From IMG/VR virus record IMGVR_UViG_3300025684_000010: a stretch of 64,000 bases of DNA. One strand, 5' to 3'. The notes under the pieces were generated by a model, which worked only from the letters and a program-made list of their open reading frames with translations, did not search any database and was not told where the DNA came from. The position numbers were made by a program, and so were the translations under genes. Below are positions 22,501-59,097 of this stretch, piece after piece (position 1 is the stretch's first letter; each line of letters begins with the position of its first letter). The stretch is from a virus.

Positions 22501-25500
22501 ATGTATGGGTTCCACCGCCGTTAGCAACCGCACCAACATTACAACCAATTACGTTTCCATTCACTGAAGTAATTTTAACTTTCTTCTTATAGAACGGATG
22601 ATGTGGTTCAGGTGCAGAGTGATTTGTTAAATTGCCATCTAGCAGACAAGTAAATGTAATACCGCGAGTTGCGAATTCAATCTCATCTCCGACAACCATT
22701 TTATGAGTACCGATGTTAGCAGTAAATTCGCCGGTTTCTGGTACATAACTTGCAGTTGTTGGAGTAAAGCTTGCGATTGTTGTTGTTGGGTAAGTATGTT
22801 GAGTAGCGTTACCGTCAAGTGCACAAGTAAATGTTAAACTGTCAGGCGCAAGTAATACTTCTTCACCAACTTGTAAATCATGAGTACCAACTGTAATAAC
22901 CGTTAAGCCTGTTACAGGATCATATGTTGCATTAGATGGAGTATAGATTTTATTGCCAGAATTTAATATATTCTTGACTTTATTAATATTCTCTACTGCT
23001 CTATGTCTTGATGCTTCGTCAGATAATGCCTTAACTTCTGTAATTGAGTTAGCAGCCGCAGATACAAACGTATGAGCATTTGTTCCACCTTTACCTACAT
23101 TCATTATAATAGTTGTAGATGTTACTGCTTCAATTGGGCAAGGATGATTGTAATAAGGATGTCCTGCCGCAGGTACAGAATCGTTCTGAACTCCACTTCC
23201 TGTATCACAGCTAAATACAATACCGCCTGCTGAGAATCTAACGTACTCTCCAGGTAATAAACTATGTTGACCAATCGTTGCTTCGAACTTTCCTGTTGTA
23301 GGATCGTAACTTGCAGTTGTTGGAGTAAACTGATCTCCAGGTACTGTACTAATAAGATCTTGTTTCAATGTTTCCATTGAACCTAAGGTTTGCACTAACT
23401 GATTGTTAATAACATTATCAGCAAGTGTAGTACCTGCTCTGTAAGCAATACCTGTTTGAATTGCGTTATAGTTTGAACCTGTTAGAATATCTCTTTCAAC
23501 CGCAGGCAAAATATATTGAGTTACATCTCGACGACACTTGTTAGAATCATATCTGTAATAAGTATTTTCGATATATCCTTCAATCATGTCTTGAATGAAT
23601 TCTTTGTTTCTTTGTAATTGCTTTCTTGCATTTCTGTTAGCAGCAGGAATCGCCGTAGCATCACTCCAAGCAATATCATCTCCTAGAGTAGATACAGCGT
23701 TAGGTAAAGCAACTACGAAGTTATGCTTATCGACAATTGCCGACTTACCAACATTAATTGTGATTCGATTAGGTGTTGCTCCTAATACCTCAATTGGAGT
23801 ACCTGCAGCCGGGTCAGAAGCTCGAGGATATCCTGTTCTTGTTTTATTATTATCTCTATCACAAGTAAATATCAAACCACCGGTTTTAAGTAATACATAT
23901 CGGCCTGCAGATAATCCGTGGCCTGCTGTAATTGCTTGTGGTGTTGCAGAAACAAATGTATGAGGAACCTGTCCTGTACCACCTGTACCAACATTCATAC
24001 GAATCGTTGTGGTGGTTGTTCCTATAATAGGACAAGGTTTGTTATAGTATGGGTGATGAGCTTGAGGCGAAGTATGATTCGCTACCCCACTTCCCATGTT
24101 ACAACTGAAGGTAATACTTTCTGGTTTAAACCAAACACTATCACCAACTTCGAGTGTATGTGAACCTACAGTCGCTTCCATGATTCCTGTGGCAGGATCG
24201 TAGGTTGCGTTTGATACCGTAAGTCCAGTTTGTGGCTGAAGTGTGATAACTGATAAACCAGTAGATGGATCATAAGTAGCAGCCGTAGGTGTAAACTGTT
24301 TTCCTTTATTCTCAAGGATTTCTAAAATATTATCGTAAGCATCATCGAGACGATCTGAAGCAAGGAATGAATCCCCGTCAATCAATTCGTTAGTCTGATC
24401 TTTTAATCTCTTATAAGCAGCAACTGTTTCATTGTTCTGATTTTCCATAACAGTTTTTGCAGCAGCCATGTAATATGCACGACCTGCAGTAACAGAGTTA
24501 TAGTTTGTGTCGAACATCATGTCGTTCTTAACAGCAGGTAGAATATAATCAGATACATCTCTACGACAAGCTTTACTATCGTAAGCATAGAACTCTTCGT
24601 TGTTCTCTATCCAATTAATAAGACCATCTGAAATTACTTTTTTGTTGTCTTGTAGAAGTTGTCTGGCTGAGGTATAAGGAACAGAAGTATCTTTCCATAT
24701 AATCGGGTTGATGTTCTCTTCGCCGTACTCCAGGACATTCAGAAGTTCACTAAAGGACGTTTCGATGCGTTCGTTGATTTCAATATTACCAGTTGCGAAT
24801 ACTCGCTTTGTTTGGTCTCTTAAGTATTCAAGTGCACCTTTTGTCTCTCCAAGCTGTTCACCTGGGACAACATAACTGATTGGTGATCTATAAGTGATAC
24901 CACCTAAACGACCCCAGTAGTTTGTGTCAAGTGCAATGTCATATCCTGTACCGTCAAGTACAATTCCTGAATCTCTTAAACATTTTTCTGAATCGTATTC
25001 TTGGTAACCTAATCCGCCGTTAGCAGTATTAGAAGTCAAGTAATCCACAACATCATCGATAATAGCATCTGCGGCGTAATCAATTGATTCTGCGAACGCA
25101 GTATTACCAATAATAGGTACGGACGTTGATTTTGGAGCAAAGAACTGAGTCGTTCCTTTTGCTCGCATTGAGATATCACCGAACTGAGTACCACTGTTGT
25201 TCAGCGTCATTTGTCCACCGTTCAGTGCATAGAACGCACAACGAACAAAGATTGACAAAGAACCAATACCGTTAACACCAGCACCGTCTCTAGCAACATA
25301 TCCTAAACCGTTTTGAGTACGAGGTGTAAAACCAAAACAAAGTACGTAGGTATATAATGAATCGGTATCAAGTACTCTTCTATCTGCAAGTACACAACCA
25401 CCACCACGACCAACCGCTCTGTTAGGGAAATCGTCGATTCCGATAGAAGCAATTGTTGCTGTACCACCAGATTCTGAAGTTATTGTATCTCCAACTTTAA

Positions 25501-29025: not shown

Positions 29026-32000
29026 CTATGTCAATGCGAGACCGCGATAATCTTTTAGCGTTGGGGCATTGTGTATGTTTGGCGAGAGTAAATCAATACG
29101 AATTTGGAATCTCTTGAATCCTTCAAACACTCCGCTTTGTGATGTATAAGTTAGAGGACCACTTACAACACCGCCTGTTTTATTTACGTCTTTAATTCTA
29201 TATTTAAATTCTCGGTAATCACGCAAGTTTGATATTGTAGAATAAGATCCTACTCCTTCGAACTTTTCTAATTCAGTCCATGATAATCTATCGAAATCAT
29301 CGAAGTCATATTGATTCTGAGCTTTAATATAAACTTTAATATCTGTTCCTGCTGGACGATATGCAGAAAGGATTAAGTTGAAATCTTCAGCATCAAGATC
29401 TTCTGCCAATTCAATTTTCTTACTGATATATTTTGCAGTTGTATCAGAGTCATTTGTAATCTTATATTGATAGGCAATAAGTTTAGATGCTTCAATATCA
29501 ATGAATGGAGTAGATGTTACGTTACTTCCGTTAGACATTGCTACATCTATTGAGAATGCTTTAACACCGGCAGGATCATTTGATTTACTGTAAAGAACTA
29601 CGCCTTTCTCTGCGAAATAGTTGTTATCATTAAACTGCATTGGCTTCAAGTAAGTAGTTGATGTATCACTAGGAGGTACAAAAGTTCCTGATAGTGTAGT
29701 TCTTGAAGTTGAATCATTAGCCTTCATAATCATAGGTTGGATATAACTTAAATTAATATCGTTAATAGCAGAAACATTTGCTGTTGAAGCACTATCAAGA
29801 CCAACTAAGTTTGCACTAACACTAAATTGTTTTGATGTAGTTGCAGAAGAATGAGCAATATGACATTCGTAAGGATTTCTTTGAACATCATATAAATCCA
29901 ATTCACCAGCAACGACAGGCATATGAGTACCTGCTCCAGAGAACGAAGGAGGAGTTTCTAATATAGCCGTAGTGGCATTTGTGATTGAGGCAATCTTATG
30001 TATTTGTATTTTAGCAGTAGAAGTATTTACAATTCTTATATAATCACCAGCAGCATAAACTGTATCGAGCGCTTGGCCACCTGTTATTGTTTTAGAACCT
30101 GCGGCAGTAGTAATACCAGTATCAGCAGGTGTGGATAATAATTGATAAACTAATTCACCAGGTGTAAACCTTCCTGTAATATTACTTAATGTAAGGAACT
30201 CATGATTTGCGTTTGTTAATTTAACAGTACCTGATGAGGAATTAAAGTTATGTCTTCTTATAGTAAATTTAATATCTTCGTCTTGATATGATTTCCAAGC
30301 AGAGTTATTAGTTGAAGTAAATAGAACACCGTCGCCCCAATCCTGAGTGATAGCAGAACCTTTTGTTGCTCCGGGTGTTAAATCAATTCCACCAACTTTA
30401 GAAGTATAAATTAAGTAATTAGGATCTGATGCATCAGGTTGTACTACAATTGCGTATTCTTTTTCTACATCTAATCTTACAGGCGCCTCAAAGGTAAACG
30501 TTGTTGCCGAAGAAGCATCTTCAGAAGTATTTACATCAGCAGGTAATTTATGAACATTTGCGAATGGCAAGATTCTGTTTGTTGGGTAACCATTTACAAC
30601 TTCTCTGATCTGTAATGATACACCATTTAATGGAGATGAATCATCACTACCTGAACCTGTTTGAGTTGGTTTACGACGGAAGTATACATCAACATTAGAT
30701 AAGTAAACTGAGTTAGAACCTGCACCCATACCTTTCTTAACAAAGAATGTTTGTGCAAGTGGATCTCTACCTCGAATACGTCGAGCAACGTTTCTTGTTG
30801 TTACTGTTGTATTCACATCAAAGTTTGGAGATCTTGTTGAAGTTGTTAAACTTGTTTTCTCAACACTGAAGTTATATGCTCGATAAGTAACAAATCCTTT
30901 ACTTGTTGAAGCAGAATCAATACTGTTATAAGCAGATACATCGGCAATTTCTAATACTCTATCACCTACATAGAATGTTTCAGCGGGTAAATAGAACACT
31001 GCTCTTAATACACCGTTTGCGTCTGTAGTAACTGCAGCACCTTTATCACCGTACCTACCAACTTCTCCAACTGAATCAGCTGTAATTGATCCTGGCATTA
31101 CGTGGGCATTTACATCAACACCATCAAAGAAGAAGTAATGTCTTTGATTAGGTCTTAATCCTGACATATAAACTTTGATATCTCTCGATGCCATATAAGG
31201 TTGGAATCTAAAGTCGGAAACAAATTCACCAACGAACGATTCTGTTGTTCTTGAACTATCAATGGTAATTTCGCTTGATCTTGTTGTAACAGTTGTTACT
31301 TCAGTTCCTGCACCACGTCTTCCTCGACGACCAGGATCAGCTTCAAACACTCTTGACGAAGATGTATCGGTCATAGGTAAGAATGCTTGAATCTCATCAA
31401 TAAATTCTTGGAACGGAGTAGTTAGATCAATATCAATAGAAGCAGGATTAACTGTTGTATCATAAGCAGCATCGTAAGGTGGAGATATAACTCCATCACC
31501 TACATACTTATAGAAGTTACTTACGCAGTTTCTAAAGTTCGATGCATACGGTTGATTAATAACCTCAACGTTTGAATTCCTTCCTACAGTTGCTACCTTA
31601 GCATCAGAAGTAGATGGGAATATTGAAGAACCTGTTGCTGAATCATATATCAAATCTAATGGGAATGTTTTCAACGAAGGAGTAAGTATCTTTTGATTAA
31701 ATGGTACCGCAGCATTAAACTGTGGATGACTGATTTCTGATAACTGTAAATTGTTAAAAGGATCTACAACGAAACCATTCTTGAATCTGTTTAAACCATT
31801 CTCATCGCGTACAACTAAGTTATCAGTTTCTGATTCTAATTGATTCAATGAAATATAGTATGCCATGTTATCAATCTTCTTTTCAAGATCGTGCATATCT
31901 TTCATTGTATAATTCTTAATACCTGTTGCTCTTGGTTTAATTGCATAACCAGGTTTACGAAGAACATCAGCCTGTTTCTTAGACAGCGCAGGATAAGTTG

Positions 32001-34458
32001 GAACTTCTACATTTGCGATTGCCAACTGGTCTGTTGTAAGCTTTGGTGGTACAGGATTTTTCTGTTCTTCACCTTTAATGATAACAATATCACCATAAGA
32101 ATCACAAGCAATTGTATCAATTCTTGATAGGTAATGTTCTATACTTGTTTGTAATGATTGCTGTGCAGCAGGAACCAACGCAGCTCCTTTATCACTAAAC
32201 GATACGGTATTGAAACCAACCTGAGTTGAAATCGTTGGAGCATTACCTGAATTCGCCAAATAGTTTGCACCAGAATCTTTATTAACATGTGGTCTGAAAT
32301 CAAACGAATCTCTCAAGTTATATACTTGACCTGACTCTGACGTGTAAGAAGGAATATCAAACTTACTTAAAGTATTTGGATAACTATTAATTGTAAAGAA
32401 GTATTTACCAGTCGAAGTGTTTACCTCGAAGCATTGTAGATTCACTAGCATTACGCCACTTGGCTCAGGTCGACCTTCAATATATTCTACATAAGATAGA
32501 TCGTAATAAGTATCTTTCTGATTCTCTTTTAATCTAAAGCTACTTGTAAAATCTTCTCCTGCTGCATCTGTAATACTTACAATTTTAAATACATCTGGGA
32601 AACCTAAACTATATTGTGTTTTAACGTTTGAGTAACTAAACTTAACATAAGTATCACGTAATGTTTTAGCATAAGGTGAAATACCACCCGATGAACCAAC
32701 CTGTCTTTTATTATAAAATACTTCTACTGAACCACTCAAACCACTATCACAAATAATATTAAGTTGTGAATTATTCAAAGCAGTAGTAGTACTTATAACA
32801 GGATATGTTGTTCCTGCCAAGTTAACTCGAATATCGTCGTTAAGACAATTAAAATCTTCGCCTGGTCCTGCAGTTAATGTGATCGTGCCTGTTGTCGCAG
32901 TTCCTGTATTTTGAAATCTACAAGGAATAAGAGTATTTGATGTTGCGAACGTTCCATTAATACCAGTATCAAAGATTAATGCCTTTCTTCCCGTTTCTTT
33001 AATAACAGGTGAACCGATACCGTTTGTTCTTATAGGTACATCACCACTACCATCTGATAATTTGGTAATGTCTTTAATAGCTTGAGCACCGTTATATACA
33101 GCAGAGTGAATATAGATTCTTTTGTCTGTTATGTTTTGTACTGCAACTCCACCAACTGAAGCGCTTCCTGATGTTTGCGCATCTGCTGGTGAAAGAATAC
33201 CTAAATTCAAATAACCTTGTGAATTACTTGTAGTATCAATCTCAAAATAGTTTCCATATTCCATTGAAACGTTTTGGTTATTAACTGTTTCAGTTTGTCC
33301 TATTTGATCTATTTGGAATGAACGTTCGCCAGAATTTTCTACTCTGTAACCTTTTACATATGCTATACCAGGTCCGACGACACATTGTACTTCACTATTG
33401 GCAGCACCAGTAGGAATACGATCATCAGTAGTTATTGGGAACGTTTCTAAAATGTAATTACCAGATTCTTCGTAGGTACGTCGAGCCATCTCTTCGCCCA
33501 ATACGTTGTATTGAGAAACGTCTCTTACAGTAATTGCATTACCATTTTGATAACGAGCCAATGTAAAGAAGTCTGAATTCTGAGTTCCTTCTGAAGTTTC
33601 CAATACTGTTAATGTAGGAACAAGTTTTAATCTGTCTGCGCCTGGGGCATTTTCATTCTTAGAACCGTTTGCATTATCGTATAGGCTGTTATCTTGTAGG
33701 TTATTAATTAATCTTTCTGCTACTAAATAACCAACTGATTTATTATCGGCAACGTTAGTATACTTTTCAACAACTAATCTTTGTTCTGCTGTAAATATAA
33801 AATGGCCTTTCTGAAATATAATACCAGGAGCAGCTTCGATACCGAATGCTCTACCAACATGTGGATTTCCTACTGAAGGTGAACCGTATACCGCAAGACC
33901 TGTATTAATAACAGTGTCAATAGATAAGGCTTCGTTTGTGGTTCCTCTTAAATATTTGAATCTTGTTACAACTAACGCTTCACCAGCTTGAAATTGAGTT
34001 TGACCTGCCAAACCAATGTTAGTGTAGTTAATAAAGAAAGTATTTAGATTTGGTGGTCTTGTTTGAAATCCTTTAGAAGCCTGAACGATTTCTGCTTTCA
34101 GTCCGGACGATTGTCCTTTTACCTGATAAACATAGTCAAGTTCTACTTCTTGGCCTGCTAATACTTCAACCGCAGGTGTGCTGATATATGACGCTGCGTT
34201 AAATCCAGTAGGACCGTCATTTAGTTTTACAAATTGAAGATCATCAAGTTCTGTAAAGTTACATCCTTTTACAATTGAACCTTCTTTGAAAATATTATCT
34301 CCAAATGACTCAACCTGATTTTGAAGCATAGTCTGGAGTTGTGTAAGTTCTCTTGCCTGTATCGCGTACCCAGGCTTGAACATAACTCGATAGAACTGCT
34401 TCTCTGCATCATAGTCATCGAAGTATGGTGCTTGGTTTAAGTTTTTATTAATAGGCAT
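29026..34458 (-). CDS. VrlC-like / DUF4815 large baseplate-associated structural protein (1810 aa)
   Basis: N-terminal NLNQAPYFDDYD.EKQFYRVMFKPGYAIQARELTQLQ, internal RFKNGFVVDPF and C-terminal P.LKDYRGLA, next to gp8 as in T4-like marine phages. Confidence 0.85.
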   Translation of the reverse strand: MPINKNLNQAPYFDDYDAEKQFYRVMFKPGYAIQARELTQLQTMLQNQVESFGDNIFKEGSIVKGCNFTELDDLQFVKLNDGPTGFNAASYISTPAVEVLAGQEVELDYVYQVKGQSSGLKAEIVQASKGFQTRPPNLNTFFINYTNIGLAGQTQFQAGEALVVTRFKYLRGTTNEALSIDTVINTGLAVYGSPSVGNPHVGRAFGIEAAPGIIFQKGHFIFTAEQRLVVEKYTNVADNKSVGYLVAERLINNLQDNSLYDNANGSKNENAPGADRLKLVPTLTVLETSEGTQNSDFFTLARYQNGNAITVRDVSQYNVLGEEMARRTYEESGNYILETFPITTDDRIPTGAANSEVQCVVGPGIAYVKGYRVENSGERSFQIDQIGQTETVNNQNVSMEYGNYFEIDTTSNSQGYLNLGILSPADAQTSGSASVGGVAVQNITDKRIYIHSAVYNGAQAIKDITKLSDGSGDVPIRTNGIGSPVIKETGRKALIFDTGINGTFATSNTLIPCRFQNTGTATTGTITLTAGPGEDFNCLNDDIRVNLAGTTYPVISTTTALNNSQLNIICDSGLSGSVEVFYNKRQVGSSGGISPYAKTLRDTYVKFSYSNVKTQYSLGFPDVFKIVSITDAAGEDFTSSFRLKENQKDTYYDLSYVEYIEGRPEPSGVMLVNLQCFEVNTSTGKYFFTINSYPNTLSKFDIPSYTSESGQVYNLRDSFDFRPHVNKDSGANYLANSGNAPTISTQVGFNTVSFSDKGAALVPAAQQSLQTSIEHYLSRIDTIACDSYGDIVIIKGEEQKNPVPPKLTTDQLAIANVEVPTYPALSKKQADVLRKPGYAIKPRATGIKNYTMKDMHDLEKKIDNMAYYISLNQLESETDNLVVRDENGLNRFKNGFVVDPFNNLQLSEISHPQFNAAVPFNQKILTPSLKTFPLDLIYDSATGSSIFPSTSDAKVATVGRNSNVEVINQPYASNFRNCVSNFYKYVGDGVISPPYDAAYDTTVNPASIDIDLTTPFQEFIDEIQAFLPMTDTSSSRVFEADPGRRGRRGAGTEVTTVTTRSSEITIDSSRTTESFVGEFVSDFRFQPYMASRDIKVYMSGLRPNQRHYFFFDGVDVNAHVMPGSITADSVGEVGRYGDKGAAVTTDANGVLRAVFYLPAETFYVGDRVLEIADVSAYNSIDSASTSKGFVTYRAYNFSVEKTSLTTSTRSPNFDVNTTVTTRNVARRIRGRDPLAQTFFVKKGMGAGSNSVYLSNVDVYFRRKPTQTGSGSDDSSPLNGVSLQIREVVNGYPTNRILPFANVHKLPADVNTSEDASSATTFTFEAPVRLDVEKEYAIVVQPDASDPNYLIYTSKVGGIDLTPGATKGSAITQDWGDGVLFTSTNNSAWKSYQDEDIKFTIRRHNFNSSSGTVKLTNANHEFLTLSNITGRFTPGELVYQLLSTPADTGITTAAGSKTITGGQALDTVYAAGDYIRIVNTSTAKIQIHKIASITNATTAILETPPSFSGAGTHMPVVAGELDLYDVQRNPYECHIAHSSATTSKQFSVSANLVGLDSASTANVSAINDINLSYIQPMIMKANDSTSRTTLSGTFVPPSDTSTTYLKPMQFNDNNYFAEKGVVLYSKSNDPAGVKAFSIDVAMSNGSNVTSTPFIDIEASKLIAYQYKITNDSDTTAKYISKKIELAEDLDAEDFNLILSAYRPAGTDIKVYIKAQNQYDFDDFDRLSWTELEKFEGVGSYSTISNLRDYREFKYRIKDVNKTGGVVSGPLTYTSQSGVFEGFKRFQIRIDLLSPNIHNAPTLKDYRGLALT

Positions 34459-41072: not shown

Positions 41073-44000
41073 TTATGAAGGCGGTGTTGTAATATCATAA
41101 TCGTTTTCTAAGTACTGGCCGAGCAAGTGTTTCATATCATCACTGACAACATGAGCAACATCTTCACGGAAGAATATTACATTTCCATAATTATAAATTC
41201 TACTTGTTGCGCCATACAGAGGCCCTGTTGTTAATTGAAGTCCTGTATAGCCTTGTGCCTGCGCGAACCTAAATGCAGACTCTGTAGCAGGCAAGAAGTT
41301 AACTCCTACGAATGGTCCGCCTGAATAAGGAACAACAGTATCTGCTCTTCCGTTCATTTGAACAATTCTTCTTTGTGGTATTGGAGTCTTCTGCGTTGTA
41401 TAACCATCCTGTGGCCATTCATCACCTGTATATAAATCATTTAATGGATACCAGAACGCACTATTTCTGTATTGGAAATCGTGCGTTTGTGATAGCATAC
41501 AGACAATCGTATCAACGGCAAGATCGTTAATTTCAACAGCAGCCCTTAATGCAAGTCCACCACCATTTGATACACCTACAATACGAATCTTAGTATTATC
41601 AACGTTTTTATATAGTTTCAGCTTAGTAATAAGTTCTTCCAACATTACAATGTCAGGACCGTTTGAAGTTTCATTTGAAACGTTCCAACTATTTGCATAG
41701 CCGTCAACTCCAATACATATATGTCCTGGCAATTCACTAGAGAATTGCGTTATCATTTGTGAACCTGATCCGCCATTGCCATGTAATAAAATAGCAACTG
41801 GGAATGGACCTGATCCTGATGGTATAGCTGCCGTTACGCTGTAATCGTGGAAACCTTGATACCAATTCTTTGTAATTGTTAGATCGGAAACATTATCTTG
41901 AACTAAAGTTAATCCGCCGGTTCCACCAGGTTCATGGTCGGCTGATACACCTGTATTATCAGCAGTAAAGTTAGTAGTACCTGCATTCAGCTCTGTTATA
42001 TCAGCAACATCGAACGGAGAACCACCACCTTGGTCGTTGAATCTTCGTAAGAATCTCGGTTTAATTGTTCCGCCTACCTTTGCCTTAAATATAAAGTCAC
42101 CAAACAGTTTTGAACCTGCCAAGTGAACATTTTCTTTTAATAACTTTTCATAATTCTGTATAGGTAAGCTTGATTTAATTTGATATGAATACTCTTGATA
42201 GAAATCACTATCTTGTATTCTTTGTCCTGAATCTAAATATTCTTGGTCGTATACATTAACGTCCGCATCAAATTCCCAAACAAGGTTTTCCTGTGAACTG
42301 TACCAAGCTTGTTGTTTCATTGAAGGAACAACAATATCATTCCATCTTGCCGTGATACTTGCAGCTGCACTTCTAGATCTTAGCTGCGTCAACCATATTC
42401 CAGTTGCGGCTGAGATTGCCATACCTTGTTTACTTAAATCATATATTGCGTATCCATCTGAAGCAGTACTACTAAACCAAGCTTCGAACGCAGGAGCTAA
42501 AGTTGGATAGGTTACTGTTGGATCAAATCCTATAGCTATTCGACTAACTATTAAAGGTAAAGATGCACCGGGTAAATTTGTTTTTGTTGTTGTTACACTA
42601 TTTTGTTTCCAACCACTTAAGTGAGAATTAGTTCCTGCCCAATATCCACTTGTTACACCTTGAGTATCTGCTTTAATAATACCGTGAGAAACGAATTCAT
42701 TATTGGCTGTTCTTAATTCACCTAAACCATTTGCGAAATCAGTAATCTCTGAATCATCTACTTCGTATTCCCAATAACCAAAACCAGAATTTAATATATT
42801 TACTTCTGAAATTTTCCCTACCGCAAATTCTGTTTCTGATTTAATCACTGCGTTGTCACCAAATCTTGCAGTTCCTAGGAAATCAGTTGCGATACTTAAA
42901 ACATTTTTTACCTGGTCTGGTGCATTCTCAAATGCAATGTTTTCGTTTTTATTTAATCCATTAATATTAAATGGAGTAATCGTAATAAATCCATCTTGTT
43001 GATTAACATCTGTTACGACACCATTTATACCAGAAGTTACACCTCGTATTCTATCTTTCACAGAGAACGAACCTGCATCACCAGCATCAGCAAATAAAAC
43101 AACTTGATTCTTACGATCTACATTTTTAAGTAATGAATCTTGGGCAATCGCAAATACATCACTCTGATAATCGGAACCAGGATTAATATTATCAAATCCT
43201 ACAATAGAACCAATTGTTAAATCTTGAATATCGAATGCTTGATCTAAAGGAGTAGTAAGAGTAACTGGCGAAGCAGTACCTGACATTGGAGTAACTGCGC
43301 CATAATCAGCAGCATCAAGTGTAACAGATACATAAGGTAATATGACGTCAGTAATAATTGAAGCAATAGATGTATCGTTTAATGATGAAACTTTTACATC
43401 GTTTACATTTAACGTATCAGGATAAAGAGGACCTGGAGAAGAACCATTTACTGATACTAATTGATTTGCTGTAAGAGATAAGTTAATTGTTATTTGAGGT
43501 ACAGGAGTAGATATACCGTTAACGAGAATATTTGGCCTGACTGTTGTAACCGTGGTACTATCAGTGAATCCAGTATTAGCGTATGCCGCGTCAAGTTTAA
43601 TTCCTATTGAAGATAAATTTTGCCCAATAATAATACCACTACGACCTGCCGTATCTTGTAATGTTTCACCTATAACAAATTCTTGATTAAAACCATTCGC
43701 ACTGTTATCAAGAATAATAGATTGGTCTGAAACAAGTAATCTTGTATTGTCAATCGTATAACCATAACCACCATTTTCTAAATCGTATTTAATTTGACCT
43801 GATGCTGTATCTGTAACTGCCGTGACAATTGCTTTACCTGCATTACCATCTTTCTGAAGTACATTAAGAACTTCACCAATTTCTCTACCTGCGAGATTCT
43901 TTCTTCTTGCTCCCACATCTGATCTATCAACAATAGTAAACTTTGAAAGAGATCCATTTGTTTTACCAAACTGTACCACTTCACCGTTTATGTTACAAAG

Positions 44001-44633
44001 AATATCTTCATACTTGTTAAATGTACCTTGAATACCATCAAGATATATGACAGGTGTTTTAATACCGTTTAGAATAAAGAAGTTAATTGATCTTACCGAT
44101 GCCTTTGCGCCAGTTACCGAACCTTCAATGTTACGAGCTAATAAATCAAGATACTTGTATTCCTTTCCAGTTTTTGAGGTAAATAAATCATTGTTTGGAA
44201 ACATCTGTAAATAAGTACCTTGCTTCCATGCAGAGTCAGATACCTTTTGCATCTTTTCAGCGGGATACACAATTTCAATTTCAAACTCTTGATAGAATAT
44301 AGCAAAGAATAATTCTATACCGCGGGCAGTACCTTTTGCTCGATATAAGTCAAGTATATTTTTAACAATAAATTTAACAAGATCTGCTTTAAGTGGAAGA
44401 TCAGCAAGAAACTTTTTCTTAAATAGTATAATCATACTATTCATTGTAGTATCAATATCTCTCGTTTCAAATAAACGTCTTGCTTGATAGATATGCTGAT
44501 TCTCTTGAGTTTCAGACCACCTATAATACTCTTCGACTAATTTAACAAGCTCAGGTCCATCTTCCCTGTAAATAGCGGGGAACTGATTCTTAATGAAAAG
44601 CGACAGATTTTTTTGTATATCACCCTGAGGCAT
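41073..44633 (-). CDS. gp7: Baseplate wedge initiator gp7-like protein with C-terminal alpha/beta-hydrolase (esterase) domain (1186 aa)
   Basis: N-terminal QFPAIYREDGPEL..LVEEYY.W.E and LYRAKGT.RGIELFF; later RIQDSDFYQEYSYQIKS...VHLAGSKLFG. The C-terminus has LLHGNGG, GVSNGG (G-x-S-x-G), NGRADTVVPY and a terminal His. Confidence 0.8.
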   Translation of the reverse strand: MPQGDIQKNLSLFIKNQFPAIYREDGPELVKLVEEYYRWSETQENQHIYQARRLFETRDIDTTMNSMIILFKKKFLADLPLKADLVKFIVKNILDLYRAKGTARGIELFFAIFYQEFEIEIVYPAEKMQKVSDSAWKQGTYLQMFPNNDLFTSKTGKEYKYLDLLARNIEGSVTGAKASVRSINFFILNGIKTPVIYLDGIQGTFNKYEDILCNINGEVVQFGKTNGSLSKFTIVDRSDVGARRKNLAGREIGEVLNVLQKDGNAGKAIVTAVTDTASGQIKYDLENGGYGYTIDNTRLLVSDQSIILDNSANGFNQEFVIGETLQDTAGRSGIIIGQNLSSIGIKLDAAYANTGFTDSTTVTTVRPNILVNGISTPVPQITINLSLTANQLVSVNGSSPGPLYPDTLNVNDVKVSSLNDTSIASIITDVILPYVSVTLDAADYGAVTPMSGTASPVTLTTPLDQAFDIQDLTIGSIVGFDNINPGSDYQSDVFAIAQDSLLKNVDRKNQVVLFADAGDAGSFSVKDRIRGVTSGINGVVTDVNQQDGFITITPFNINGLNKNENIAFENAPDQVKNVLSIATDFLGTARFGDNAVIKSETEFAVGKISEVNILNSGFGYWEYEVDDSEITDFANGLGELRTANNEFVSHGIIKADTQGVTSGYWAGTNSHLSGWKQNSVTTTKTNLPGASLPLIVSRIAIGFDPTVTYPTLAPAFEAWFSSTASDGYAIYDLSKQGMAISAATGIWLTQLRSRSAAASITARWNDIVVPSMKQQAWYSSQENLVWEFDADVNVYDQEYLDSGQRIQDSDFYQEYSYQIKSSLPIQNYEKLLKENVHLAGSKLFGDFIFKAKVGGTIKPRFLRRFNDQGGGSPFDVADITELNAGTTNFTADNTGVSADHEPGGTGGLTLVQDNVSDLTITKNWYQGFHDYSVTAAIPSGSGPFPVAILLHGNGGSGSQMITQFSSELPGHICIGVDGYANSWNVSNETSNGPDIVMLEELITKLKLYKNVDNTKIRIVGVSNGGGLALRAAVEINDLAVDTIVCMLSQTHDFQYRNSAFWYPLNDLYTGDEWPQDGYTTQKTPIPQRRIVQMNGRADTVVPYSGGPFVGVNFLPATESAFRFAQAQGYTGLQLTTGPLYGATSRIYNYGNVIFFREDVAHVVSDDMKHLLGQYLENDYDITTPPS

Positions 44634-53366: not shown

Positions 53367-53828
53367 ATGGCATATAAGGGTAAATTTAGACCAAAAAATC
53401 CGACCAAGTATAAGGGTGACCCTACAAAAATTATTTATAGGTCTTTGTGGGAGTTCAAGGTATTTAAATGGATGGATTCTCACCCAGATGTAATATGGTG
53501 GCAATCTGAAGAAGTGATTGTTCCATATAGATCGCCGATTGACGGAAAGATACATAGGTATTACCCGGATGTGGTTGTACATAAAAGAGACGGTACAGGG
53601 CAACCTCAAACAATTATGATTGAGATTAAACCAAGCAGTCAATGTAGACCTCCTGATATTAAAAATAAGAACGCGACAAAGACAGGTAGAATATCGAGAA
53701 GATATTTAAATGAAGTTAAGACATGGGGTGTTAACGAAGCAAAATGGAAAGCAGCAAAGAACTTTTGCGCTGACCGCGGATGGCAGTGGACAATAATGAC
53801 AGAAAAACATATACCAGGAGCACGTTAA
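53367..53828 (+). CDS. gp4: Head completion nuclease gp4 (TnsA-like)
   Basis: MAYKGKFRPKNPTKYKGDPTKIIYRSLWE...W.SEE..VPY.SP.DGK.HRYYPD...EIKP...NEAKWKAA. Confidence 0.95.
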   Translation: MAYKGKFRPKNPTKYKGDPTKIIYRSLWEFKVFKWMDSHPDVIWWQSEEVIVPYRSPIDGKIHRYYPDVVVHKRDGTGQPQTIMIEIKPSSQCRPPDIKNKNATKTGRISRRYLNEVKTWGVNEAKWKAAKNFCADRGWQWTIMTEKHIPGAR

Positions 53829-54446
53829 GTGGCAAGCTTATTCTCAGATATTCTAGTAAAAGGAATAACATCAGGACAAGTGCCTGCTAGAACAAAAGGT
53901 GCGAGGGAATGGTACCGTAAACAAGCAACGTTAGCAGTAGGTAAAAGAATTACAGAAGATGAGATTGTAGGTAATACTGATAAAGGAAGAAACAAAGCGC
54001 AGTTACGTGGTGATTCTGTTTATGGATCAATGTACTTTTTTAGGTATGATCCTAAACATAAATCTACTTTACCATACTATGACGCCTTCCCTTGCATATT
54101 TCCAATAAATAAGGTAAAGGGTGGTATACTTGGATTGAATATGCATTACTTACCACCAAAGATGAGAGCCCAATTAATGGATGCTCTTTATACAACTGTA
54201 TCAGACAAAAGCTATGATGAGAATACAACATTGAATATAAACTATAAGATTTTAAATAGTGCTGCCAATATGAAGTTCTTTGCACCTTGTGTTAAAATGT
54301 ATTTGGCAAAACACGTAAGATCTAAGTTTGTTAAAATCAATTCATCGGAATGGGACACTGCGTTATTTTTACCAGTACAAAGTTTCCAGAAAGCCGGGTC
54401 AGCGAAAGTTTGGGCAGACTCAAGAAAGCTCATAGCGGGGAATTAA
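53829..54446 (+). CDS. gp2: DNA end protector gp2
   Basis: G.MYFFRYDPKHKSTLPYYDAFP...G.LGLNMHYLPP..RA.L..., PCVKMYL..HVRS. GTG start directly after the gp4 stop. Confidence 0.9.
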   Translation: MASLFSDILVKGITSGQVPARTKGAREWYRKQATLAVGKRITEDEIVGNTDKGRNKAQLRGDSVYGSMYFFRYDPKHKSTLPYYDAFPCIFPINKVKGGILGLNMHYLPPKMRAQLMDALYTTVSDKSYDENTTLNINYKILNSAANMKFFAPCVKMYLAKHVRSKFVKINSSEWDTALFLPVQSFQKAGSAKVWADSRKLIAGN

Positions 54447-54449
54447 TAA

Positions 54450-55229
54450 ATGCCATTTAACATTAGTGAATTTAAAAGTCAGTTCGATAGATATGGCGGG
54501 CCAGCTATGGCTAATCTATTTTCTGTTCAAGTAACACTACCACCTCAGCTTCGCGCAAGAATACAACCAGCAGAAAATAATGCTTTTAACATGAGTCATA
54601 CGTTTACTTTCTTTTGTCATAAGATGGATATACCTGCGATTGGTATTAATACATCTGAAGTATCATATACGGGACAAATGAAAAAGAAACATCCAACAAG
54701 AGTTCAGAATCCAGGCCCTATGAGTGCATCTTTCTTTGTTGATTCTGATCATCATGTTTTAAGGTTCTTTCACGCTTGGGCTCAAAACATTATAAATTAT
54801 AATAAAGGCGATGGTGCATTTGCCGAAGTAGATGGTAAACTTCCACATGAAGTTGGATTTAAGGAAGACTTTGCATGTGATATGATTATTAAACATTATT
54901 CAACAGATTCTTATCCTGACGTATATTACGAAACTAAACTACAAGGAGTATGGCCAGTATCTATTGGAGCATTGAGTTTAGATTGGTCAACAAAAACAGC
55001 TCTTTCATTAGATGTTCAGTTTACAGTTACTGATATGTCATTCGATGGAGCAAAGTCAGGAAAAACGAATAGCAGATTATCGAGAGCAAGCGGCTTGTTA
55101 GATATCCTTGGAGATATCGCAGGCTTCGGAGACGCGGTAAGAGGAACATTAAAAAGCGGGAAACCGACAAGCATACAGGATGCTATCAATAAATTAGATA
55201 GACTTGGTAATGCATTTGGAAAAATATAA
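54450..55229 (+). CDS. gp54: Baseplate tail-tube initiator gp54 (gp19 family)
   Basis: G.A.ANLF.V, F.VDSD...L.FF..W...I, L.GVWP.SIG.L.LDW.....L.VQF. Tube-family fold and gene position. Confidence 0.8.
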   Translation: MPFNISEFKSQFDRYGGPAMANLFSVQVTLPPQLRARIQPAENNAFNMSHTFTFFCHKMDIPAIGINTSEVSYTGQMKKKHPTRVQNPGPMSASFFVDSDHHVLRFFHAWAQNIINYNKGDGAFAEVDGKLPHEVGFKEDFACDMIIKHYSTDSYPDVYYETKLQGVWPVSIGALSLDWSTKTALSLDVQFTVTDMSFDGAKSGKTNSRLSRASGLLDILGDIAGFGDAVRGTLKSGKPTSIQDAINKLDRLGNAFGKI

Positions 55230-55260: not shown

Positions 55261-55962
55261 ATGGCACTACCAAAAATTAACTTACCAATCTCGGAATTGA
55301 TTTTACCGAGTACAGGTGAAAAAACTAAATATAGACCTTTTTCTGTAGCGGAAGAAAAGATCTTGTTAGTTGCACAAGAAGCGAATGACGCAGAACAAGA
55401 AGTATTAGCAATGAAACAAATCATTTCTAATTGCTTAATTGAAAAAGATGTTGAAGAACTTGCATTATTTGATTTTGAATATGTTTATTTAACATTAAGA
55501 GCACGTTCAGTCGATAACTTGGCTAAGTTCAAAATTAAAGATCCTGACACGGATGAAGAAATTGAATTAGAACTTGATATGAGAGAGATTGATATTGCTC
55601 GAGATGAAGCTCATACAAATGAAATTAAAGTAAACGATGAGTATACTCTGTTTCTAAAGTATCCATCTATTAATGAATTCATAAAGATTGTTGGAATGAA
55701 TAATGACGATCCTTTAGTTAACTATTTTGTAATGATTTCTTGTTTAGATACATTAGCTTCAGAAGATGAAGTACATAGTTTTAAAGATTATAGTGATGAA
55801 GATATTGAGTCCTTTATGGATAGTCTCGGTGGGGATGTTATTCGAGGAATTACTTTATTCTTTGAAACAATGCCGAAGATACGAAAAGAGTTACCATATA
55901 CGAATAGTGAAGGTAAAGAACAAACGTTTGTCGTGGAGGGCACCCGTAGTTTTTTTATCTAA
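55261..55962 (+). CDS. gp26: Baseplate hub assembly chaperone gp26
   Basis: MALPKI.LP..EL.LPSTG....YRPF.V.EEKILL.A, FD.EY..L.LRARSV, FFETMPK and terminal EG..SFF. Confidence 0.95.
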   Translation: MALPKINLPISELILPSTGEKTKYRPFSVAEEKILLVAQEANDAEQEVLAMKQIISNCLIEKDVEELALFDFEYVYLTLRARSVDNLAKFKIKDPDTDEEIELELDMREIDIARDEAHTNEIKVNDEYTLFLKYPSINEFIKIVGMNNDDPLVNYFVMISCLDTLASEDEVHSFKDYSDEDIESFMDSLGGDVIRGITLFFETMPKIRKELPYTNSEGKEQTFVVEGTRSFFI

Positions 55963-55986
55963 GCCTTAGCCATATAACGTTAGGGC
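55935..55986 (+). promoter_or_regulatory. Candidate programmed -1 frameshift cassette: internal SD GGAGGG (55935-55940), heptamer T_TTT_TTT (55950-55956), hairpin 55963-55969/55980-55986
   Basis: All three elements and their spacings were read from the sequence. The -1 frame is open from 55950 into the gp51 coding region. Confidence 0.7.
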
Positions 55987-56135
55987 ATTACTATCAAATG
56001 ATTTTCTCCATGGCACAACACCACAAATGGTCTGTGTCCGAAATTGAGGCTATGATGCCTTTTGAAAGAGATCTTTATTTTAGTATGCTAGTACAATGGA
56101 TAGAAGAACAGAATGAACAACGAAAACAAGGTTAA
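55950..56135 (+). CDS. gp51: gp51-like hub assembly protein; -1 frame extension of gp26 (first ATG at 55998)
   Basis: The frame reads FFYLSLSHITLGHYYQMIFSMAQHHKWSVSEIEAMMPFERDLYFSMLVQWIEEQNEQRKQG*, matching the gp51 pattern QHHK.S..E.E.M.P.ERD.Y..L. It is below the ORF-track length cutoff. Confidence 0.8.
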   Translation, partial: FFYLSLSHITLGHYYQMIFSMAQHHKWSVSEIEAMMPFERDLYFSMLVQWIEEQNEQRKQG

Positions 56136-56140
56136 TATAA

Positions 56141-57997
56141 ATGGCTAAAACAACACCAAAGAGCAAAGAGCTAAGTCCAGAGACTCAGAGTATAGTCAAT
56201 CGTCTTATCCGTGAAGGAGAGCTTGTAAGGAACGACGGCAAGCATTCGATTAAAGAAATTAGAATTGACCTTGGAAAATTTACCGATGCTTTTGCTGCAA
56301 TTAAAATAAGCTCTGAACAAACAGCTAAAGTCTTAACGGATTCTTGGGAAGGAAACGAAGCACTACTCAAAAATATTGATGAAAGCTTAGTTGGTTTAAA
56401 TGACACAGAAAAAGATGCTGAACTGGCAAGAAGAGCTCAGGCTAAAAAGGATTCCATCGCAAATAAAGAAAAAAGTGCTGAAAGTATGTTTGGTGCCAAA
56501 GTATTAGAGAAAAACTTAATGCTAGGATTCAAAGGTTTAAAAGATGGATTCATGGCAATAAAGAAAGATCCGTTTGGTTCGTTATTAAACATTGGCAAGT
56601 GGGCAATTATAATACCAGTATTAGCCGGAGCGATTAAAGGATTGCTTGATAAGATCTTTGGTGAAGGCGAAATGGCTGCATTCTATAAAGGTTTTAGCGA
56701 GAGTGCATTTGGTAAATTTATTAAAAACAACCCGTGGACATCTATTGGTATTGGCATAGCGGCAATGGCCGCGGTTAACTGGGCCAAAATGTATCTAGCT
56801 ATGATGGCCGCAGCGACAATGTTGGGCACAAGAGGTAAAGGTGGTCTTACTGCATTAGGAGGCAAGGCTAGTACGGCTGCAGCTCCAGCTAAAAATGTTG
56901 TATCCAAGCTTGGTAAATTCGCGCTTGGTACAATAAGAGGTAATGCAATTGTTGCTGGTGTTACTACTGCGGGTTTATTAATTTATAATAATATGGACGA
57001 CGGCGAAAAAACAAACCTTGATACAGAGATGGCGAGAATTGATGCAGAATACTCAGGCAAAGAATTAGAAGCCAAAGACAAAATCTTAACTAATTTTGAA
57101 AATGAAAGATCAGGTATAGCTGATATCTTTCTAGGAACGGCTGGCGGCGCTGCTGGCGGCGCTGCTACTGGCCTCCTTTTTGGTGGAGTTGGAGCTATTC
57201 CTGGAGCAGTTATGGGTGGCTTAACAGGATTCTTTACTAGTGTTTCACAAGTTGGGATAGAATACATTGATGATTTGAACAACGACATTGATGAAATTCC
57301 AAACGAAATGGAAAGGTTGTTAAAGGAAGAACAAAGGAAGAACAAGTTATCATTGATGTACGGAAGAACTGAGAAGGCAGCAGAGTTAACTCGAAAGACA
57401 ACAGAAGGTATGCAAACTTTTGTTAATGACTTACGAGCCAATATGACTACTGATGCAATATTCGGCGATGCAAATATTGCAGCTCTCGAAGCCGCAAGTA
57501 AGAGTGAGATAACAGAGAAAGGACGAAGAAAAAATAAAACTGAATATGTTATGTTCGGCGGAGAACTAGTTAGGTTATCAGAAATTAATGAACGTCTCGA
57601 AGAAGCTAAAAAAACAAGAGTAAATAGAGAAAGACAATTAAAAGCATCTGAAAGATTACTTGAATTGAGATTAGGTGAAGTAGAATCTGTTGAAACTTCA
57701 GTTGATAGCGCGAATAATTTAAATGCTCAAATTGATGAAGTAGCGGCAAAGGCAGCTGCAGCTAAACCAAATATTCTTCCTGATGTTGAAGAAAGAGATA
57801 AAAAACAAACAGTTGCAGCTGGTGGATTTGCTTTAAACGTAACGAATAATTATATTTCTAAAGGCGGAGATACAATGGTACAGAATAAGTCTGATAATCG
57901 AGTATCTTCACAGAATAGTACTAATGCTGTTGTCTTTGGTGGTGGCGGTGGAAGATTTGGCGGTGGAACTGGTTTACCGACTGGCGCCATGGCATAA
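56141..57997 (+). CDS. Probable tail tape-measure / gp29-like hub protein (618 aa)
   Basis: Helical, charged protein with central hydrophobic and glycine-zipper segments, directly after gp26/gp51. Its length is close to T4 gp29. Confidence 0.6.
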   Translation: MAKTTPKSKELSPETQSIVNRLIREGELVRNDGKHSIKEIRIDLGKFTDAFAAIKISSEQTAKVLTDSWEGNEALLKNIDESLVGLNDTEKDAELARRAQAKKDSIANKEKSAESMFGAKVLEKNLMLGFKGLKDGFMAIKKDPFGSLLNIGKWAIIIPVLAGAIKGLLDKIFGEGEMAAFYKGFSESAFGKFIKNNPWTSIGIGIAAMAAVNWAKMYLAMMAAATMLGTRGKGGLTALGGKASTAAAPAKNVVSKLGKFALGTIRGNAIVAGVTTAGLLIYNNMDDGEKTNLDTEMARIDAEYSGKELEAKDKILTNFENERSGIADIFLGTAGGAAGGAATGLLFGGVGAIPGAVMGGLTGFFTSVSQVGIEYIDDLNNDIDEIPNEMERLLKEEQRKNKLSLMYGRTEKAAELTRKTTEGMQTFVNDLRANMTTDAIFGDANIAALEAASKSEITEKGRRKNKTEYVMFGGELVRLSEINERLEEAKKTRVNRERQLKASERLLELRLGEVESVETSVDSANNLNAQIDEVAAKAAAAKPNILPDVEERDKKQTVAAGGFALNVTNNYISKGGDTMVQNKSDNRVSSQNSTNAVVFGGGGGRFGGGTGLPTGAMA

Positions 57998-58063: not shown

Positions 58064-58576
58064 TTATTTTCCTTTCAAATACTCAAGTACTTTTTCAGGA
58101 GCGGTTTCTCCATACGGATCTGTAGCACAATCATCTTCCTTGCCATCTTCTACAAACATCCTTTCAACAGTACCATCGTCTACGACCATAGCATATCTCC
58201 AAGATCTTTTACCAAAACCAAGATTGTCTTTTGCGACTAACATATCCATTCCTGCTGTAAATTCACAAGATCCATCCGGAATAAATTTAACATTCTTTAC
58301 TCTTAGATCTTCTGCCCAAGCATTCATAACGAACGTATCGTTACAAGCAATACAATAAACCTCGTCAACACCATTCTCAATAATTTGATCGTATAGTACG
58401 TCAAATCCTGGGACTTGATTATTTGAACAGGTTGGGGTAAATGCGCCGGGTAGAGAAAAAACAACTACTCTTTTATTTTTAAAATAGTCTTCCGTTGTAG
58501 GATGGGTCCACTCGAACTCTCCGCTATCGACATTTCTACTTCTTACTTTAAAAGTTACATTAGGTATAGTTTTCAT
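58064..58576 (-). CDS. Peroxiredoxin (Prx5/type II, redoxin family)
   Basis: VVVFSLPGAFTPTCS (peroxidatic Cys), ND.FVMNAW, F.PDG...F..GM.M and RSWRYAMVVDDG.V. Confidence 0.95.
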   Translation of the reverse strand: MKTIPNVTFKVRSRNVDSGEFEWTHPTTEDYFKNKRVVVFSLPGAFTPTCSNNQVPGFDVLYDQIIENGVDEVYCIACNDTFVMNAWAEDLRVKNVKFIPDGSCEFTAGMDMLVAKDNLGFGKRSWRYAMVVDDGTVERMFVEDGKEDDCATDPYGETAPEKVLEYLKGK

Positions 58577-58632: not shown

Positions 58633-59097
58633 TTAACCTTTTAAGAATTCCTTCTTAGTATTCTTAGCATTAATCTTTATTTTACGAGCCTTTTTACTTT
58701 CTGGAATTATTCGTTCCAATGCAATTGTTAAAAGACCGTTTTTGAAGTTAGCGTCAATTACTTCAATATCGTCCGCAAGAGTAAAACTCCTGGTGAACTT
58801 CTTGAAGGAAATACCACGGTGAACGTATTCGCCGCCGCCGTTAAAGTAATCTCCTGCTTCATCCCATGTGGAACGAACAGTTAAATTATCTTCTTTTACT
58901 TCGATTTCTACATCATCAATATCAAGACCTGCTAAAGCAAGATCAATAAAGAACTTTTCGCCTTTGTCGGTTCTGATATTATAAGGCGGGAAGCCTTGAG
59001 ATTGTTGTTGATGCTGTGGGAACTCCGCCAATCTGTCAAAGACTCTATCGAATCCAAGAGCAAAGGGGTGAAGTTGGTTTATATTTAATCCAGTCAT
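58633..59097 (-). CDS. hsp20: Small heat-shock protein Hsp20 (IbpA-like)
   Basis: GFDRVFDRL, FPPYNI, LALAG....D.EIEV....L.V, Y.HRGIS.K.F.R.F.LA..IEV..A...NGLL.I.LER.IPE..K.RKI.I. Confidence 0.95.
   Translation of the reverse strand: MTGLNINQLHPFALGFDRVFDRLAEFPQHQQQSQGFPPYNIRTDKGEKFFIDLALAGLDIDDVEIEVKEDNLTVRSTWDEAGDYFNGGGEYVHRGISFKKFTRSFTLADDIEVIDANFKNGLLTIALERIIPESKKARKIKINAKNTKKEFLKG

Follow-up and report, generated by a model that had tools for sequence, protein, structure and literature searches.

A Probable -1 Ribosomal Frameshift Linking gp26-type and gp51-type Sequences in a T4-like Marine Phage

The IMG/VR virus record IMGVR_UViG_3300025684_000010 contains a homologue of T4 gene 26 followed, in the -1 frame, by a gp51-type domain. 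All coordinates given here refer to the window, a 64,000-nucleotide (nt) stretch of that record, and every feature is on its plus strand unless otherwise noted. The gp26 reading frame (55261-55962; 0 frame) encodes 233 amino acids (aa) and ends with AGT (55948-55950) TTT TTT ATC and the stop codon TAA (55960-55962). Read in this way, the sequence holds a slippery heptamer, T_TTT_TTT (55950-55956), in the X_XXY_YYZ register one codon before the stop. The -1 frame is closed immediately 5' of the heptamer by a TAG (55947-55949), so initiation further upstream in that frame is impossible. From the heptamer onward it reads F-F-Y-L-S-L-S-H-I-T-L-G-H-Y-Y-Q-M and continues to a TAA at 56133-56135. The extension that a slip would add (55956-56135, with base 55956 read twice) comprises 59 codons, for a predicted long form of 232 + 59 = 291 aa. 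The first ATG of the -1 frame, and the start expected from an annotation pipeline, is codon 17 (55998-56000), which opens a 45-aa open reading frame (ORF). It is very probable that a programmed -1 ribosomal frameshift at 55950-55956 generates both the 233-aa gp26-type and the 291-aa gp51-type form, as a G/GT pair of the T4 superfamily.

Two further elements flank the heptamer. A Shine-Dalgarno (SD)-like GGAGGG (55935-55940), a possible frameshift stimulator, ends 9 nt 5' of it with no ATG, GTG or TTG behind it. A hairpin with a stem of 8 base pairs (bp) and a loop of 8 nt (55963-55970 pairing with 55979-55986) begins 6 nt 3' of it, with a folding energy of -10.9 kcal/mol, a z of -2.4 relative to shuffled sequences, and two G-U pairs. 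An initial annotation of this DNA had reported the gp26 3' end with its in-register heptamer, the TAG that precedes the open -1 frame, and the GGAGGG lacking a start codon, each of which proved exact. Its hairpin also begins 6 nt downstream as described, but has a stem of 8 bp rather than 7, and the length of about 294 aa it gave for the fusion is corrected to 291.

The product of the 0 frame matches the Pfam family PF12322 (T4_baseplate) with 162.5 bits, against a curated cut-off of 24.5, and an E-value of 1.5e-47, covering profile positions 5-218 of 219; it also matches phrog_150 (1.2e-53). The 61-residue peptide of the -1 frame matches phrog_634, described as "baseplate hub assembly catalyst" (1.6e-23), with its residues 2-60 aligned to positions 56-114 of the 121 in the profile. 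The names gp26 and gp51 given in the initial annotation are borne out by these matches. So too is its placing of the beginning of gp51-like sequence 16 codons before the first ATG, as the family match already begins at residue 2. This relationship is visible to profiles only, and BLASTP of the 61-aa extension against T4 gp51 returned nothing.

Relatives of the locus were gathered from two sources. A total of 80 IMG/VR loci with a gp26 homologue were retrieved, and annotated records were added for cyanophages, Caulobacter phage Cr30, Pelagibacter phage Mosig, Ralstonia phage RSP15 and Paraglaciecola virus GD1, as well as for Aeromonas phages AS-yj and Ahp1. The homologues were reduced to 37 lineages under 85% nucleotide identity, and in 37 of 37 the sequence NNT TTT TT(T/C/A) is found in register at homologous codons. 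T is the last base of the codon preceding the run in every case (AGT, GAT, AAT, TCT, ACT or GCT), whichever of S, D, N, T or A that codon encodes, and TTT is invariably the first Phe codon of the run. The third codon may be TTA, encoding Leu, which indicates that the nucleotide run is conserved rather than the F-F dipeptide. Elsewhere in the gp26 genes, slippery heptamers are found in register at only 33 of 6919 codon positions. The presence of a slippery heptamer at the homologous codon in all lineages, a check that the initial annotation had proposed, is more than chance.

The stop codon of the 0 frame lies 0-2 sense codons past the heptamer in most lineages and 3-4 in two of them. The largest frame overlap belongs to Pelagibacter phage Mosig (L003, 3699-3732), in which nine more 0-frame codons follow T_TTT_TTC. 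One locus, L045 (IMGVR_UViG_3300038844_000058, ~1831-1840), was considered as a contiguous fusion without a heptamer and was rejected: apart from about 176 nt missing between two short repeats (ATGT.AAAAA), a loss that takes away the heptamer and most of the extension, it is identical to L041, and it is a deletion variant or misassembly. PF12322 is represented by one gene only in a 100%-complete relative of 221 kb, which leaves no second gene there that could provide the extension joined to a gp26-type body. The PF12322 family is not found in the genome record closest to the window, a fragment that is 21% complete.

The -1 frame is conserved as protein from the slip site onward. In 29 lineages, whose gp26 identity falls as low as 33%, no gap is needed to align the -1 peptides over approximately 55 residues counted from the heptamer, and a stop closes the frame 0-19 codons upstream of it. 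From the 0-frame stop to the ATG of the window there are 13 codons, whose entropy by codon position follows the pattern of the remaining domain, and among relatives of at least 75% identity the codons before the ATG carry 7 synonymous changes versus 1 non-synonymous change. Thus, the coding conservation upstream of the ATG that the initial annotation had proposed to look for is found in the gapless alignment, in the codon periodicity and in the ratio of changes. In the window this stretch contains no ATG, GTG or TTG, and canonical initiation therefore cannot produce it. The position of the first -1-frame ATG, a further check, is not conserved; in relatives it is situated anywhere from 3 to 45 codons past the heptamer, and in cyanophage P-SSM7 and lineage L026 a start at this codon would leave a mere stub with most of the domain lost. 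AlphaFold2 models the extension as a small helical domain, with a predicted local distance difference test score (pLDDT) of 80.8, and the ATG at 55998 falls inside the predicted helix spanning residues 11-25, the first long helix of the model.

Comparison with T4 places the two predicted products in a known context. Genes 26 and 51 of T4 (L085, NC_000866) are divergently transcribed neighbors, at 3803-4429 and 4480-5229, whose products of 208 and 249 aa, respectively, are hub assembly chaperones (Leiman et al. 2010, PMC3004832, Table 2). The gp51 protein is required for assembly and is absent from the virion (PMC3004832). Both proteins match PF12322, and their mutual identity is about 20%; gp51 does so over residues 1-201 (3.9e-52) and additionally matches phrog_634 over residues 147-246. 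When the 37 predicted fusion products were combined into a profile, T4 gp51 aligned to it continuously, over positions 23-281 of 296 and straight over the junction. The same profile aligns T4 gp26 over positions 11-237, where gp26 ends at the junction. These alignments make the 291-aa product collinear with the essential T4 gp51 and the 233-aa product collinear with T4 gp26. On this sequence comparison, T4 encodes the short and the long form as diverged paralogues. The proposal in the initial annotation that gp26 and gp51 are the T4-like equivalents of lambda G and T is supported insofar as the pair is G/GT-like, but T4 gp51 represents the whole long form (GT), not T alone.

The lineages with two genes lack the heptamer. 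T4 gene 26 ends with GAG TTC TTT GAG TTA CTA TAA, in which G_TTC_TTT is not slippery; the corresponding sequence in Acinetobacter phage Stupor is A_TTT_GTT, and phage 44RR has none. The F-F motif is largely retained among them, as E-F-F in T4 and E-F-V in Stupor, and is missing from 44RR. In the one-gene Straboviridae, represented by Aeromonas phages AS-yj and Ahp1, the -1 domain comes after a T_TTT_TTC.

The fold of the short form was also modeled. The AlphaFold2 model of gp26 has a pLDDT of 86.9 and was compared with 48,161 representative PDB chains. For model residues 1-93, the three top-ranked chains were 3fgx (Z 7.6), 2ob9 (Z 7.4; gp13, the tail assembly chaperone (TAC) of HK97) and 3klu (Z 7.0; YqbN), with 83-84 aligned residues each. 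These were followed by a protein of a phage-inducible chromosomal island (PICI)-like element at Z 5.4 and by unrelated chains at no more than 4.2. All three top-ranked chains are phage tail assembly chaperones (PMC9603447). Foldseek again placed 2ob9 first for the gp26 model, but not significantly (E 0.65), and the gp26 sequence found nothing meaningful among the PDB chains, so that the likeness to TAC proteins is one of moderate Z and is not accompanied by sequence similarity. Because three independent TAC structures occupy ranks one to three, the likeness is hard to dismiss despite the moderate Z values. In this model, the N-terminal domain of gp26 is structurally closest to solved tail assembly chaperones, which supports a G/GT-like reading.

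The genes on either side of gp26 may be of the kinds that flank such chaperones. Directly upstream is a gene of the tail-tube family (54450-55229), a gp54/gp48-like baseplate tube initiator; its product matches phrog_45, "tail tube" (1.9e-36), and Pfam Phage_TTP_2 (9.2e-5), and its homologue in Pelagibacter phage Mosig is annotated as the baseplate tail tube initiator. Downstream is a gene for a tape-measure-like protein of 618 aa (56141-57997), recognized by its position, its size, comparable to that of T4 gp29 (590 aa), and its Gly-zipper-like segments. An Atlas lead associates it with a cluster containing PF25671, T4_Tape_measure, with a score of 0.91. On the basis of position, size, composition and this lead, the protein is presumed to be the gp29 analogue and the client of the chaperones.

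Gene 26 would then be a two-product gene in this uncultured T4-like marine phage. Most ribosomes would read 55261-55959 and stop at the TAA at 55960-55962, which would release the 233-aa short form. We infer that the slip occurs in a minority of ribosomes, which would move back one base, with two tRNA-Phe on UUU UUU of the U_UUU_UUU at 55950-55956, and proceed in the -1 frame to 56135. The resulting 291-aa long form would consist of the short form minus its last residue, joined to a 59-residue helical extension of the gp51 type. Probable aids to the slip in this clade are the GGAGGG ending 9 nt before the heptamer and the 8-bp hairpin beginning 6 nt after it. By homology, the short form corresponds to T4 gp26 and the predicted long form to T4 gp51. 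The two probably assist assembly of the tape-measure/hub complex as chaperones and would be absent from the virion. This function is proposed because of the analogy to lambda G/GT, the TAC-like fold of the N-terminal domain, and the gene order of tube family, chaperone and tape-measure-like protein. The rare long form would supply an extra binding module. T4 gp51 has long been known to be needed in catalytic amounts, a requirement with which a rare long form bearing an extra module is in keeping.

The hairpin is kept in relatives of at least 75% identity with one compensatory change of a C-G to a U-A pair and one change of G-U to G-C, the latter also found in a contig from an RNA library. Different strong hairpins are found at the same place in other lineages, including Cr30, whose heptamer is T_TTT_TTT (-11.6 kcal/mol), L068 (-14.3), L039 (-11.9), L050 (-12.1) and S-RIM8 (-10.7). 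At the place of the SD-like element, the Glu codon is GAG in 13 of 29 cases versus 17% elsewhere in gp26, a preference that suggests some nucleotide-level selection.

Several observations weigh against a frameshift, or against parts of the case for it. Given the amino acids and the codon usage of the genes themselves, the codon choices at the run have a log10 P of about -12 under naive independence, a value that is overstated because the lineages are related and not independent, though the effect is still large. The F-F dipeptide is conserved at the protein level too, even in T4 gp26, which ends in E-F-F-E-L-L, and this explains part of the T-run. In Vibrio phage K474 (L089, OZ195913, 3190-3405), the gp26 homologue ends with ACG CTT TTT GCG TAA, in which there is no canonical X_XXY_YYZ heptamer, and an ATG that shares bases with the stop codon (TAATG) opens the gp51-type domain. 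The extension of K474 may be a free small protein or the product of a single-tRNA slip on C_TTT_TT, and a free-standing small gp51-type protein may work in some phages. The presumed client is also without significant BLAST or hidden Markov model (HMM) similarity to T4 gp29 or to the Cr30 tape measure. Additionally, a hairpin conserved across the family is rejected: scanning 42 nt beginning 3 nt past the heptamer against the gene background of each lineage, folding was clearly better than background in only 10 of 37 lineages. Of the 37 lineages, 21 have a core SD-like 4-mer at a constant distance from the heptamer, compared with 5% of background windows, and this signal is both limited to those 21 and confounded by a conserved E/K/Q-G dipeptide. 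It is plausible on these sequence patterns that the SD-like element and hairpin are lineage-specific enhancers and no defining part of the site. The dnaX/IS-type combination of the two elements claimed in the initial annotation is present at the right spacing here and in the near clade, and does not extend to the family.

A first alternative dispenses with frameshifting. Under this explanation gp51 is a free small protein, 45 aa in length here, translated from the ATG at 55998, and the T-run reflects conservation of F-F only. Such an ATG does exist, and relatives carry small ORFs annotated as "baseplate hub assembly catalyst"; the retention of F-F as protein even in T4 gp26, and the ATG overlapping the stop in K474 in place of a canonical heptamer, are likewise what it would predict. 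It does not, however, accommodate the 16 codons before the ATG, which are conserved as protein and lie beyond the reach of any canonical start in the window, nor an ATG that wanders among relatives by 3-45 codons and would cost some phages most of the domain. The only purines upstream of the ATG at 55998 are a GGG that is 12 nt away. The amino acids leave the choice of NNT and TTT codons unexplained, and in the two-gene lineages the heptamer is gone although F-F is largely retained. Finally, T4 gp51 is contiguous over the junction, and the ATG lies within a predicted helix. A free protein in place of a frameshift is accordingly judged improbable, but independent initiation may coexist with the slip, or may be the rule in lineages of the K474 type.

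The same 291-aa fusion could also arise by transcriptional slippage, with RNA polymerase inserting one extra U as it copies the T7 run. Seven consecutive T could serve as such a site, and the protein sequence after a single-U insertion would be identical. Polymerase slippage needs no register, whereas the run starts at codon position 3 in 37 of 37 lineages, and in 22 of the 37 it is only six T long (TTTTTTC or TTTTTTA). Efficient polymerase slippage is known on runs of 8-9 or more. The spaced hairpin and the SD-like element fit stimulators of ribosomal slippage, and contigs from four RNA libraries show T7 with no indel, a weak argument in that contigs drop rare variants and may derive from DNA. 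Transcriptional slippage is thus considered quite unlikely.

Lastly, an artefact or decay, whereby a homopolymer sequencing error or a frameshift mutation split a once-contiguous gp51-like gene, can be dismissed: homopolymer runs are error-prone and the long form of T4 is contiguous, but the same arrangement recurs in more than 60 independent assemblies and in finished isolate genomes of several families, which excludes a sequencing error or pseudogene, the contigs of four independent runs agree on T7, and the short form matches full-length T4 gp26 and ends at the same place.

A ribosomal frameshift at the heptamer can be set beside three systems. The conserved -1 frameshift of the tail assembly chaperone genes of long-tailed phages, exemplified by lambda gpG/gpGT, was reportedly described by Xu, Hendrix and Duda in 2004 (Mol Cell 16:11; cited as reference 38 of PMC9024508). 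The likeness of the present locus to lambda G/GT lies in two predicted products with a common N-terminus, in an X_XXY_YYZ heptamer that is in register and precedes the short ORF's stop by a few codons, and in a -1-frame extension that lacks any conserved start codon. The gene is likewise located between a tube-family gene and a presumed tape-measure gene, and its product has a TAC-like N-terminal fold. In contrast to lambda, the family here is PF12322, with no sequence similarity to G, and the short form is 233 aa long, with a second domain beyond the TAC-like 90 residues, while the extension has only 59 aa. The heptamer is T_TTT_TTN versus G_GGA_AAG, the setting is a T4-type baseplate hub, and the slip and binding partners are predicted. 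Among myoviruses, frameshift pairs include E/E+E' of P2 and gp41/42 of Mu.

T4 gp26/gp51 itself belongs to the same PF12322 family, with gp26 ending at the position of the slip and gp51 continuing into the same helical extension. The difference is that T4 has two separate, divergent genes whose products are about 20% identical, whereas here a single gene is predicted to give two products with identical N-terminal 232 residues. In Escherichia coli dnaX, the -1 frameshift takes place at A_AAA_AAG, between an SD-like element on the 5' side and a stem-loop on the 3' side. Both elements have counterparts at the present locus, the SD-like one about 10 nt before the heptamer and the stem-loop about 6 nt after it. 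The locus differs in the heptamer and tRNAs, and in the consequence of the slip, which would lengthen the product here and truncates it in dnaX; the stimulators are also not conserved family-wide here.

Beyond the chaperone locus, the ORF list and profile searches identify a T4-type morphogenesis block on the plus strand. It starts with a gp4-like head completion protein (53367-53828), which carries a domain like the N-terminal one of TnsA endonuclease (PF08722, 2.3e-22), and continues with a gp2-like DNA end protector (53829-54446) before the tube-family gene. The opposite strand carries gp48, gp5-like and other baseplate genes and, farther along, gp44, gp45 and an exonuclease. The tape-measure-like gene is directly followed by a peroxiredoxin gene (58064-58576, minus strand; phrog_2281, 1e-66) and a gene for an Hsp20 small heat-shock protein (58633-59097, minus strand; phrog_432, 4e-37), both of which resemble auxiliary genes of host origin. 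Upstream of the baseplate genes are giant ORFs of the minus strand at 16532-27457 (3641 aa), 10577-16036 (1819 aa), 29026-34458 (1810 aa), 6050-10093 (1347 aa) and 41073-44633 (1186 aa), presumably encoding fiber or baseplate giants. The phage is a distant relative of T4. The best identity of its gp26 to any record in the phage collection is at most 39%, and blastn of the locus against that collection returned no match, the relatives being too distant at the DNA level.

The joined coding sequence is not annotated in any sampled GenBank record of the relatives. In the records of S-MbCM100 and AS-yj the extension is unannotated, and in the other sampled records it appears as an ORF of 31-60 aa. 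The GenBank record of Acinetobacter phage Stupor (L096, MN662249) annotates gp26, gp51 and gp28 as "tape measure protein assembly chaperone", and no paper explaining this annotation was found in the literature searched. No report of a gp26/gp51 frameshift was found in the database records sampled, or in a full-text literature search that covered few subscription journals. The idea of gp26 and gp51 as chaperones is in the literature and GenBank already, and the slip itself appears to be the new part.

The -1 frameshift of tail assembly chaperones is among the most conserved phage recoding events, and to our knowledge T4-type phages have not been known to use it. We lean slightly toward the view that the one-gene, frameshifting form is the common state across T4-related phages, spanning cyanophages, pelagiphages, Caulobacter and Ralstonia phages and some Aeromonas Straboviridae, and that genes 26 and 51 of T4 are a duplicated, hard-wired version of it. 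If this is true, gp26/gp51 would be true counterparts of lambda G/GT, the catalytic need for gp51 would be explained, and a major long-tailed group thought to be without a conserved tail-chaperone frameshift would join the rule. Should the slip be real, thousands of marine and freshwater T4-like genomes would be misannotated at this locus. The gp26 and gp51 proteins of T4 would be the short and long chaperone forms with a common TAC-like domain, an extra helical module being carried by the long form, which provides a testable model of hub assembly. The locus would also offer a natural comparison, of interest to specialists in phage assembly and recoding, between two solutions to the same problem of stoichiometry: recoding within one gene and the separate expression of two paralogues.

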